A stretch of 64,000 nt of DNA, taken from assembly GCF_048403405.1 (NCBI RefSeq), contig NZ_CP183129.1; one strand, given 5' to 3'. Source of the DNA: Escherichia coli (lineage in GTDB: Bacteria; Pseudomonadota; Gammaproteobacteria; Enterobacterales; Enterobacteriaceae). The position numbers and the translations under genes were made by a program. The notes under the pieces are model-generated. The model saw only the letters and a list, made by a program, of their open reading frames with translations, was not told the origin of the DNA and ran no database searches. Positions 47,554 to 47,777 of the stretch are shown here, one piece after another; the stretch's first letter is position 1, and each line of letters starts with the position of its first letter.

Positions 47554-47777
47554 GTGATCTGCCGCAAATAGAGAATGAATATTCTCTTGTGATTAATTTA
47601 GTAGAAAATTCTTATCCATCTCCGTTATTTCAAAGTCTTGATTGTGAAGATTTTCTCTGACCTCGCGCGTATCATTTCTTTATTCTAATAACTCGCCTGC
47701 AAAAACGTAGACCGCATATCGCCTTGATGCGGCTCGGAAAAAAATAATAAGCCCTACAAAATATTGAGCGAGAAATT

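Follow-up and report, generated by a model that had tools for sequence, protein, structure and literature searches.

Conserved dyads upstream of Escherichia coli cyuPA include a candidate CyuR operator

Introduction

The spacer between tdcG and cyuP of Escherichia coli carries a short palindrome, AGAGAAT-gaat-ATTCTCT, which is the subject of this report. It was studied in a 64,000-nucleotide stretch of contig NZ_CP183129.1 (RefSeq assembly GCF_048403405.1), referred to here as the window, and all positions are those of this stretch. The spacer is bounded on one side by tdcG (46133-47503), which encodes serine dehydratase domains, and on the other by cyuP (yhaO; 47778-49109, plus strand, ATG at 47778), the gene of a cysteine importer; cyuA (49137-50447) lies downstream of cyuP. 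The order tdcG-cyuP-cyuA is present at the locus in 5398 of 5426 complete E. coli genomes, as judged by the match of a 321-bp query. Comparison of cyuP promoters leads us to favor, on balance, a reading of the palindrome as the Escherichia form of the distal one of two Lrp/AsnC-type boxes in the cyuPA upstream activating region, to which the regulator CyuR would bind.

In E. coli, anaerobic import of cysteine and production of H2S proceed mainly by way of the cyuPA genes, which have been linked to antibiotic tolerance, to azo-dye and drug reduction, and to virulence. They are activated in response to cysteine by CyuR (YbaO/DecR, AsnC family), which genomic SELEX (gSELEX) and chromatin immunoprecipitation with exonuclease digestion (ChIP-exo) have placed in the tdcG/yhaO spacer (PMC5934670, PMC6237786, PMC11408624). 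By gSELEX, cyuPA was reported as the sole CyuR target (PMC5934670); by ChIP-exo, the two reported targets are cyuR and cyuPA, and autorepression of cyuR has been described (PMC11408624). Expression of cyuPA also needs Crp genetically, with direct action stated as unknown (PMC9040844), and the small RNA FnrS reportedly promotes phenotypes that depend on cyuPA (PMC10653809). The circuit in which CyuR, Crp, and FnrS act on cyuPA is known already; for the sequence used by CyuR at cyuPA, no definition was found in the literature accessible to us.

Results

Anatomy of the tdcG-cyuP spacer

Downstream of tdcG, a terminator scan identifies an intrinsic terminator on the plus strand (47527-47553), in which the stem GGGTGCAC...GTGCACCT (47527-47546) is followed by a run of eight T residues to 47553. 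As RNA it folds at -13.3 kcal/mol (z = -4.0). This is a separate G+C-rich hairpin, which forms part of the context of the palindrome and lies outside it. The palindrome begins 17 nt past the T-run and is present at exactly the positions given in the initial annotation (47570-47587), as a perfect 7-bp inverted repeat with AGAGAAT at 47570-47576, the spacer GAAT, and ATTCTCT at 47581-47587. Its center, 47578.5, is 199 bp from the cyuP ATG, in agreement with the approximately 200 bp originally estimated. Written as AGAGAA-TGAATA-TTCTCT, and having no strand, it is designated Box D; its center lies at about -103.5 from the putative transcription start described below. It is the single 10/10 match to GAGAA-N6-TTCTC in the 64-kb window (47571-47575 and 47582-47586), in which GAGAA-N5-TTCTC has no match at 9/10 or better.

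The K-12-like version of the palindrome is found in 4592 of the 5426 E. coli genomes. In MG1655, a C at 47587 shortens the arms to 6 bp (GAGAAT/ATTCTC). This strain has C at both 47587 and 47590, where the window has T, and a second TGTGA (47588-47592) is replaced by TGCGA there, as it is in three more of the E. coli strains examined. A different version is carried by 803 of approximately 5400 E. coli genomes, in which 47576-47635 alone is E. albertii-like (about 88% identity over 181 bp) and the flanks are near-identical, which suggests allelic exchange of the upstream activating region. In one strain with this promoter allele, R6, cyuP is annotated as a truncated pseudogene.

Two dyad boxes at fixed positions in cyuP promoters

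Promoters were compared across 80 orthologous loci identified by a CyuP scan, ranging from Escherichia to Proteus, Edwardsiella, and Photorhabdus, using a 43-sequence alignment and an ungapped stack anchored on the core promoter (81 loci). Dyads were counted in 48 non-redundant cyuP promoters (<80% identity), with positions expressed relative to the -10 hexamer. Dyads of the form AGAA-N5-7-TTCT fall into essentially only two clusters. The first, at -91 ± 2, coincides with Box D and reaches at least 7/8 in 22 of the 48 lineages, 10 of which are perfect (8/8). The second, at -61 ± 2 and designated Box M, reaches at least 7/8 in 31 lineages, with eight perfect copies. Background 5-nt windows contain a mean of 0.86 lineages at 7/8 or better and a mean of 0.04 perfect matches; the highest background count at the lower threshold, 10, is that of the core block, and perfect matches never exceed one in any background window.

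In the window, Box M is TAGAA-AATTC-TTATC (47602-47616, no strand), an 8/10 match to GAGAA-N5-TTCTC with its center at 47609, or about -73, and is the proposed main CyuR dyad. GAGAA-N5-TTCTC is matched at 8/10 or better at Box M in 23 of the 48 lineages (summed over centers -62 and -61), and clear Box M dyads are present in Citrobacter, Buttiauxella, and Proteus. The centers of Box D and Box M are 30.5 bp apart in E. coli and 30-31 bp apart in other genera. The distance from Box D to the core promoter is constant even where the CRP-like site (see below) sits 10 bp further upstream, and also where the upstream gene is not tdcG (a pyruvate formate-lyase-like gene in Enterobacter, elsewhere an open reading frame of no assigned function). 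The left arm, AGA(G)AA, is conserved across genera, and the E. albertii-like allele can be read at Box D as a 9/10 dyad with N7 or an 8/10 dyad with N5. Absence of the palindrome from orthologous promoters, which the initial annotation had named as refuting its proposal, applies in part: the perfect palindrome is missing from most of them, and from about 15% of E. coli genomes as well, and a degenerate dyad recurs at its position.

Two natural arrangements of the region were noted. In E. coli strain D7, an IS1 is inserted directly after AGAAAATTCT (equivalent to about 47612), so that Box M is split and the core promoter is separated from both Box D and the CRP-like site. At the Kluyvera and Buttiauxella loci, the core promoter and Box M are retained; there is no CRP-like site, and the leader differs and does not include the AUCGC hairpin described below.

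The core promoter and an upstream CRP-like site

The pattern TTG(T/C)(G/A)A-N-TTTTTCTC-N12-TAnnnT (TTTCTC-N12-TAnnnT) is present at 73 of the 81 loci, out to Proteus and Edwardsiella. In the window, its upstream part is the proximal conserved block TTGTGAAGATTTTCTCT (47642-47658, plus strand), which overlaps the -35 region and includes an invariant TTTCTC (47652-47657). The downstream part is the hexamer TATCAT (47670-47675, plus strand), whose first T, A, and last T are invariant in the alignment, a pattern typical of a -10 hexamer. Nearly invariant as well is A47682 (MG1655 coordinate about 3,258,106, minus strand), at which we infer that transcription starts. A generic sigma-70 scan found no full promoter, the -10 hexamer being recovered by conservation only; this is consistent with an activator-dependent promoter. 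The core block was also considered as a class II CRP site of the form TGTGA-N6-TCTCY and rejected, as its center would be at about -31.5 and not at -41.5, and there is no alternative conserved -10 hexamer.

A CRP-like site, TGTGA-TCTGCC-GCAAA (47553-47568, no strand), adjoins the palindrome and is centered at about -121.5 from the putative start. Throughout the 43-sequence alignment its TGA and C do not vary, and the pattern TGTGA-N6-(T/G)CA(A/C)(A/T) is found across genera. Across genera, matches to TGTGA-N6-TCACA at 8/10 or better fall into two clusters separated by one helical turn: one at -110/-109 from the -10 hexamer (18 lineages), the other at -120/-119 (10 lineages). Several genera are nearer to the CRP consensus than E. 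coli, which scores 8/10; an example is CGTGATCCCCTTCACA. In E. coli taken by itself, identity scanning with a CRP 22-mer stays at background level, and no CRP site falls within the palindrome, which contains neither TGTGA nor TCACA.

The same half-sites are found in front of cyuR

In E. coli MG1655, the sequence AGAGAA-AAAAA-TTCTCT lies 12-28 nt before the cyuR ATG (L088:1856-1872), and its six-base arms are identical to those of the palindrome. In each of the nine genera examined, a dyad (G/T)AGAA-N5-TTCT(C/A) precedes the cyuR ATG by 12-27 nt: GAGAA-AAAAA-TTCTC in Escherichia, TAGAA-AAATA-TTCTC in a Salmonella-like sequence, GAGAA-AATTC-TTCTC in Citrobacter, GAGAA-TAATT-TTCTC in Enterobacter, GAGAA-AAAAT-TTCTC in Buttiauxella, TAGAA-AAGTT-TTCTC in Yokenella, GAGAA-ATTCT-TTCTA in Atlantibacter, GAGAA-AAATT-TTCTA in Cronobacter, and GAGAA-ATTTA-TTCTC in Superficieibacter. 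The arms are conserved, the A/T-rich spacer is variable, and changes in the arms are non-compensatory, which is the pattern of a protein operator and not of an RNA stem. Many CyuR homologs in databases are annotated with 190-200 amino acids, compared with 152 in E. coli; these longer calls appear to start too early and to cross the cdsH-cyuR intergenic region and the dyad.

Given that cyuR and cyuPA are the reported in vivo targets of CyuR, and given the Lrp/AsnC architecture, the most economical assignment of GAGAA-N5-TTCTC is that of a CyuR box. The occurrence of the same half-sites in front of cyuR in nine genera makes a CyuR box the most likely identity of the palindrome too. The initial annotation had offered the palindrome as a candidate site for the cysteine-responsive regulator of cyuPA, and this proposal gains from the match of its arms to the cyuR-upstream dyad and from its position in one of the two dyad clusters; it is weakened by the scarcity of the perfect form and by the N6 spacer.

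The only published CyuR motif that we found, GAAwAAATTGTxGxxATTTsyCC, is 23 bp long and was derived from sequence upstream of cyuR (Rodionova et al. 2024, PMC11408624). Its validation used fluorescence polarization with a Citrobacter braakii oligonucleotide (PMC11408624). In the MG1655 cyuR upstream region, which contains both elements, it lies about 37 bp upstream of the dyad, center to center. In the part of that publication available to us, cyuP is not seen in the motif-scan table, the locus tag b3110 occurs only in the introduction, and the text contains no mention of the GAGAA-N5-TTCTC dyad (PMC11408624). Similarity of the 23-bp motif to the cyuP proximal block or to a cdsH-side promoter was judged by eye and is too weak to use.

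A covarying stem-loop in the predicted cyuP leader

With transcription starting at A47682, the cyuP leader would be 96 nt long, and would contain the second hairpin of the initial annotation. CCGCAT and ATGCGG are indeed present nearer the cyuP start, 1 nt from where they had been placed (47712-47732, and not 47711-47731). The inner stem CCGCAU (47712-17)/AUGCGG (47727-32), an outer stem, and an invariant AUCGC loop make up a stem-loop of the predicted 5′ untranslated region (5′UTR; 47706-47737, plus strand). To assess covariation, sub-alignments free of gaps were anchored on ATCG. Among 16 Escherichia/Citrobacter/Salmonella-type sequences, pairing extends to 86% of cells, and seven of nine pairs have compensatory changes; 0 of 500 shuffles reach the score of this alignment, and slid controls are 24-41% paired. 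Nine Enterobacter-type sequences have a shorter-looped version, in which pairing likewise reaches 86%, AU↔GC swaps occur, and U·G pairs are frequent; the AUCGC loop is found in all versions. The U·G pairs and AU↔GC swaps indicate RNA on the plus strand. By these comparisons the second hairpin is a covarying RNA structure in the putative 5′UTR, and not a DNA site.

A covariance model places the element at the same position in 30 loci; covariance model R1, run with default filters, recovered the hairpin only in the Escherichia/Citrobacter/Salmonella-type group. Alignment of the whole leader with MAFFT followed by RNAalifold did not recover it, since loop lengths differ between the groups, and yielded nothing beyond 4 bp of pairing between the loop and the Shine-Dalgarno region. 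An Rfam scan of 47400-47900 found no family, giving sub-threshold chance matches only.

Upstream of the stem-loop, the motif UCGCCUGC (47693-47700, plus strand) includes CCUGC (47696-700), which is invariant in 31 lineages, and is complementary to the 5′ end of FnrS. Further conserved leader motifs are CCUAC and, at the ribosome-binding site, AAGCGAG; in the window, the Shine-Dalgarno region is GAGCGAG (47766-47772, plus strand), of which AGCGAG is nearly invariant. Nucleotides 1-8 of FnrS (GCAGGUGA; fnrS at L098:4130-4251) can form 8/8 pairs with UCGCCUGC. This is the best accessibility-corrected interaction, with a net -7.7 kcal/mol (P = 0.016 in shuffled leaders). The accessibility-corrected window scan replaced a plain RNAduplex comparison of FnrS with the leader, which had been no better than shuffles. 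The loop sequence AUCGC(C)UUGA is complementary to UCAAGCGAU of FnrS (nt 17-25, pairing worked out by hand), a segment that presumably forms the loop of the first FnrS hairpin.

The hairpin loop and a segment that overlaps UCGCCUGC may also pair with the Shine-Dalgarno region. In the minimum-energy fold of the E. coli leader, CUCGC (47691-95) pairs with GCGAG of the ribosome-binding site, while in the RNAalifold prediction UCGC of the hairpin loop (loop 47718-47726) pairs with GCGA of the Shine-Dalgarno region; TCGCCT is a direct repeat at 47693 and 47719. The anti-Shine-Dalgarno pairing shows no covariation, as both of its sides are invariant. An anti-Shine-Dalgarno leader that is opened by FnrS is possible.

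Discussion

Evidence against a CyuR site and alternative readings

Several observations weigh against assigning the palindrome to CyuR. When the 224-bp region was subjected to 5000 dinucleotide shuffles, 21% of these contained a perfect inverted repeat with arms of at least 7 bp and a loop of up to 10 nt, and the window contains 80 such repeats, or 0.28 per 224 bp. The palindrome is therefore by itself not beyond chance, and its significance comes only from the comparative evidence. Box D is also weaker and less conserved than Box M in the promoters compared, with GAGAA-N5-TTCTC reaching 8/10 or better in only 5 of the 48 lineages, against 23 for Box M. The center of the E. coli palindrome is N6 (TGAATA), whereas all nine cyuR-upstream dyads and most copies of Box D and Box M are N5, as are those of other genera at the position of the palindrome. 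In the promoter alignments the right arm is poorly conserved and varies even within E. coli and Escherichia: ATTTC(C/T)A replaces it in E. albertii and in the 803 E. coli genomes (about 15%) with the similar allele, still other sequences are found in further Escherichia lineages, and in Salmonella the right arm is missing altogether. The perfect palindrome is accordingly lineage-specific, being restricted to K-12-like Escherichia and missing from most orthologous promoters. Lastly, the 23-bp CyuR motif matches at best 15/23 in 47504-47777, where the background best per 274 bp has a mean of 14.3 and a maximum of 17.

A serious rival is that the left arm alone is functional, as a (T)AGA(G)AA half-site or as a flank of the CRP site, and that the right arm is neutral AT-rich spacer whose complementarity in K-12-like E. 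coli is fortuitous, which would make the palindrome a lineage-specific accident. We regard this as unlikely, though deserving real weight. It would account for a left arm that is conserved across genera beside a right arm that varies within Escherichia and is absent in Salmonella, for the ease with which shuffled sequence yields 7-bp palindromes, and for the 26 of 48 lineages in which no dyad at this position reaches 7/8. It is harder to reconcile with the 10 lineages in which TTCT follows AGAA at N5-7 with different spacers, where about 0.04 would be expected per 5-nt window, or with the identity of the full six-base arms to those of the cyuR-upstream dyad. Moreover, the left element tracks the promoter and not the CRP-like site when the latter moves by 10 bp.

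Improbable, in our estimate, is binding of the boxes by Lrp or another Lrp/AsnC paralog in place of CyuR, which would tie cyuPA to general amino-acid status. Dyads such as AGAATTTTTTTCT, AGAATTATTTTCT, and AGAAAATATTTCT fit AG-N9-CT of the Lrp consensus closely, and Box M scores 12/15 against the full E. coli consensus, which we take to be YAGHAWATTWTDCTR. However, 12/15 is background level for an Lrp 15-mer scan of the window, the dyad before cyuR in nine genera fits autoregulation by CyuR, and no link between Lrp and cyuP/yhaO was found in the literature searched.

The initial annotation had alternatively considered the palindrome to be part of the tdc termination region. A hairpin of RNA or DNA in tdc termination, or one acting on tdc read-through transcripts, would be in keeping with the proximity of the tdcG terminator, only 17 nt away, and with the folding of the 34-nt stretch as RNA (-9.0 kcal/mol, z = -3.2). 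The stem, however, is AT-rich, with two G-C pairs in seven, and is followed by TGTGATTAATTT and not by a T-run; the terminator scan gives the tdcG hairpin only, and arm changes across species are non-compensatory. The element is kept where the upstream gene is not tdcG, and its fixed distance to the core promoter at such loci excludes a role in tdc termination. This reading is given up here as very improbable. Equally remote is a binding site for the LysR-type regulator YhaJ, for although a probe of about 300 bp from upstream of yhaO was shifted in an electrophoretic mobility shift assay and yhaO promoter activity was about twofold lower in a yhaJ mutant (PMC4699771), the chromatin immunoprecipitation sequencing paper makes no mention of yhaO among YhaJ targets (PMC6765310), the one readable T-N11-A (T47569-N11-A47581) is trivial (expected about 1 in 16), and the half-sites match Lrp/AsnC-type and cyuR-upstream dyads and not a LysR-type box.

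A model for cyuPA activation by CyuR

Having weighed these alternatives, we return to CyuR as the preferred ligand of Box D and Box M. From the sequence anatomy, the positional conservation, and the half-sites shared with the cyuR-upstream dyad, we infer in the following way which protein binds, that it does so cooperatively, where transcription starts, and in which direction the effect goes. Dimers of CyuR, a cysteine-sensing protein of the AsnC family, would recognize GAGAA/TTCTC half-sites. At cyuPA, CRP would be bound at about -121.5, and the CyuR sites would be Box D and Box M, at about -103.5 and -73, respectively. Binding of CyuR to the two boxes would be cooperative, on one face of the DNA and three helical turns apart, probably as a higher oligomer like other AsnC/Lrp proteins, and CyuR might make a further contact with the invariant TTTCTC block (-30 to -25), which would stand in for a -35 element. 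Bound cysteine would turn this complex into an activating one that, with CRP, switches on an otherwise weak promoter. At cyuR, the same box would lie between the promoter region and the ribosome-binding site, a location that fits the reported autorepression (PMC11408624).

More tentatively, and with rather less confidence than for the palindrome, we suggest that GAGAA-N5(6)-TTCTC, and not the 23-bp motif, may be the sequence through which CyuR regulates its own gene and activates cyuPA, and that the leader, with its AUCGC stem-loop and CCUGC motif, may dock FnrS. No description of a GAGAA-N5(6)-TTCTC operator class was found in the literature accessible to us. If the dyad is the CyuR box, this would explain why the published motif misses cyuPA, would provide a testable promoter map made up of a CRP site, a pair of CyuR boxes, and the core block, and would allow better prediction of the regulon across Enterobacterales. 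The palindrome is an ordinary promoter element that refines a known circuit, and not a new kind of system; what appears to be new is the candidate operator sequence, the layout of two boxes with a CRP site, and the conserved leader hairpin.

Comparison with known systems

The proposed CyuR box resembles the 23-bp CyuR motif in that both are ascribed to the same regulator and are located upstream of cyuR, and the left end of the motif, GAAwAAAT, resembles GAGAAAAT. The two differ in sequence and geometry, and the 23-bp motif has no above-background match in the tdcG-cyuP spacer. Closer parallels are found in the operators of Lrp. Like these, the dyad is 15 bp long, with 5-bp arms round an A/T-rich center and AG and CT at the same positions. 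It differs from the Lrp consensus in its outermost base, which is G/C (GAGAA...TTCTC) and not Y/R, and in E. coli the palindrome has a center of 6 nt and not 5. Lrp/AsnC operators likewise have several boxes that lie upstream of a promoter at intervals of about 30 bp (three helical turns), and CyuR, the regulator known for this spacer, belongs to the AsnC/Lrp family.

The promoters acs P2 (CRP at -122.5), araBAD, and malK are co-dependent promoters with a far-upstream CRP site beside a specific activator. The cyuP promoter is similar in that its CRP-like site, at about -121.5, adjoins the proposed activator boxes and across genera takes one of two positions separated by a helical turn, and in that Crp is needed genetically (PMC9040844); it differs in that the E. 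coli site is weak (TGTGA and GCAAA, 8/10) and, like the start from which it is numbered, predicted. The leader finds its closest counterpart in rpoS, whose small RNA-activated leader has an anti-Shine-Dalgarno element and responds to DsrA and RprA. Pairings in the cyuP leader are short (4-8 bp) and predicted, with the anti-Shine-Dalgarno pairing devoid of covariation. As in leaders of the rpoS type, however, the cyuP leader is structured and has conserved single-stranded motifs, of which UCGCCUGC is complementary to FnrS and overlaps the segment paired with the Shine-Dalgarno region in the E. coli fold.

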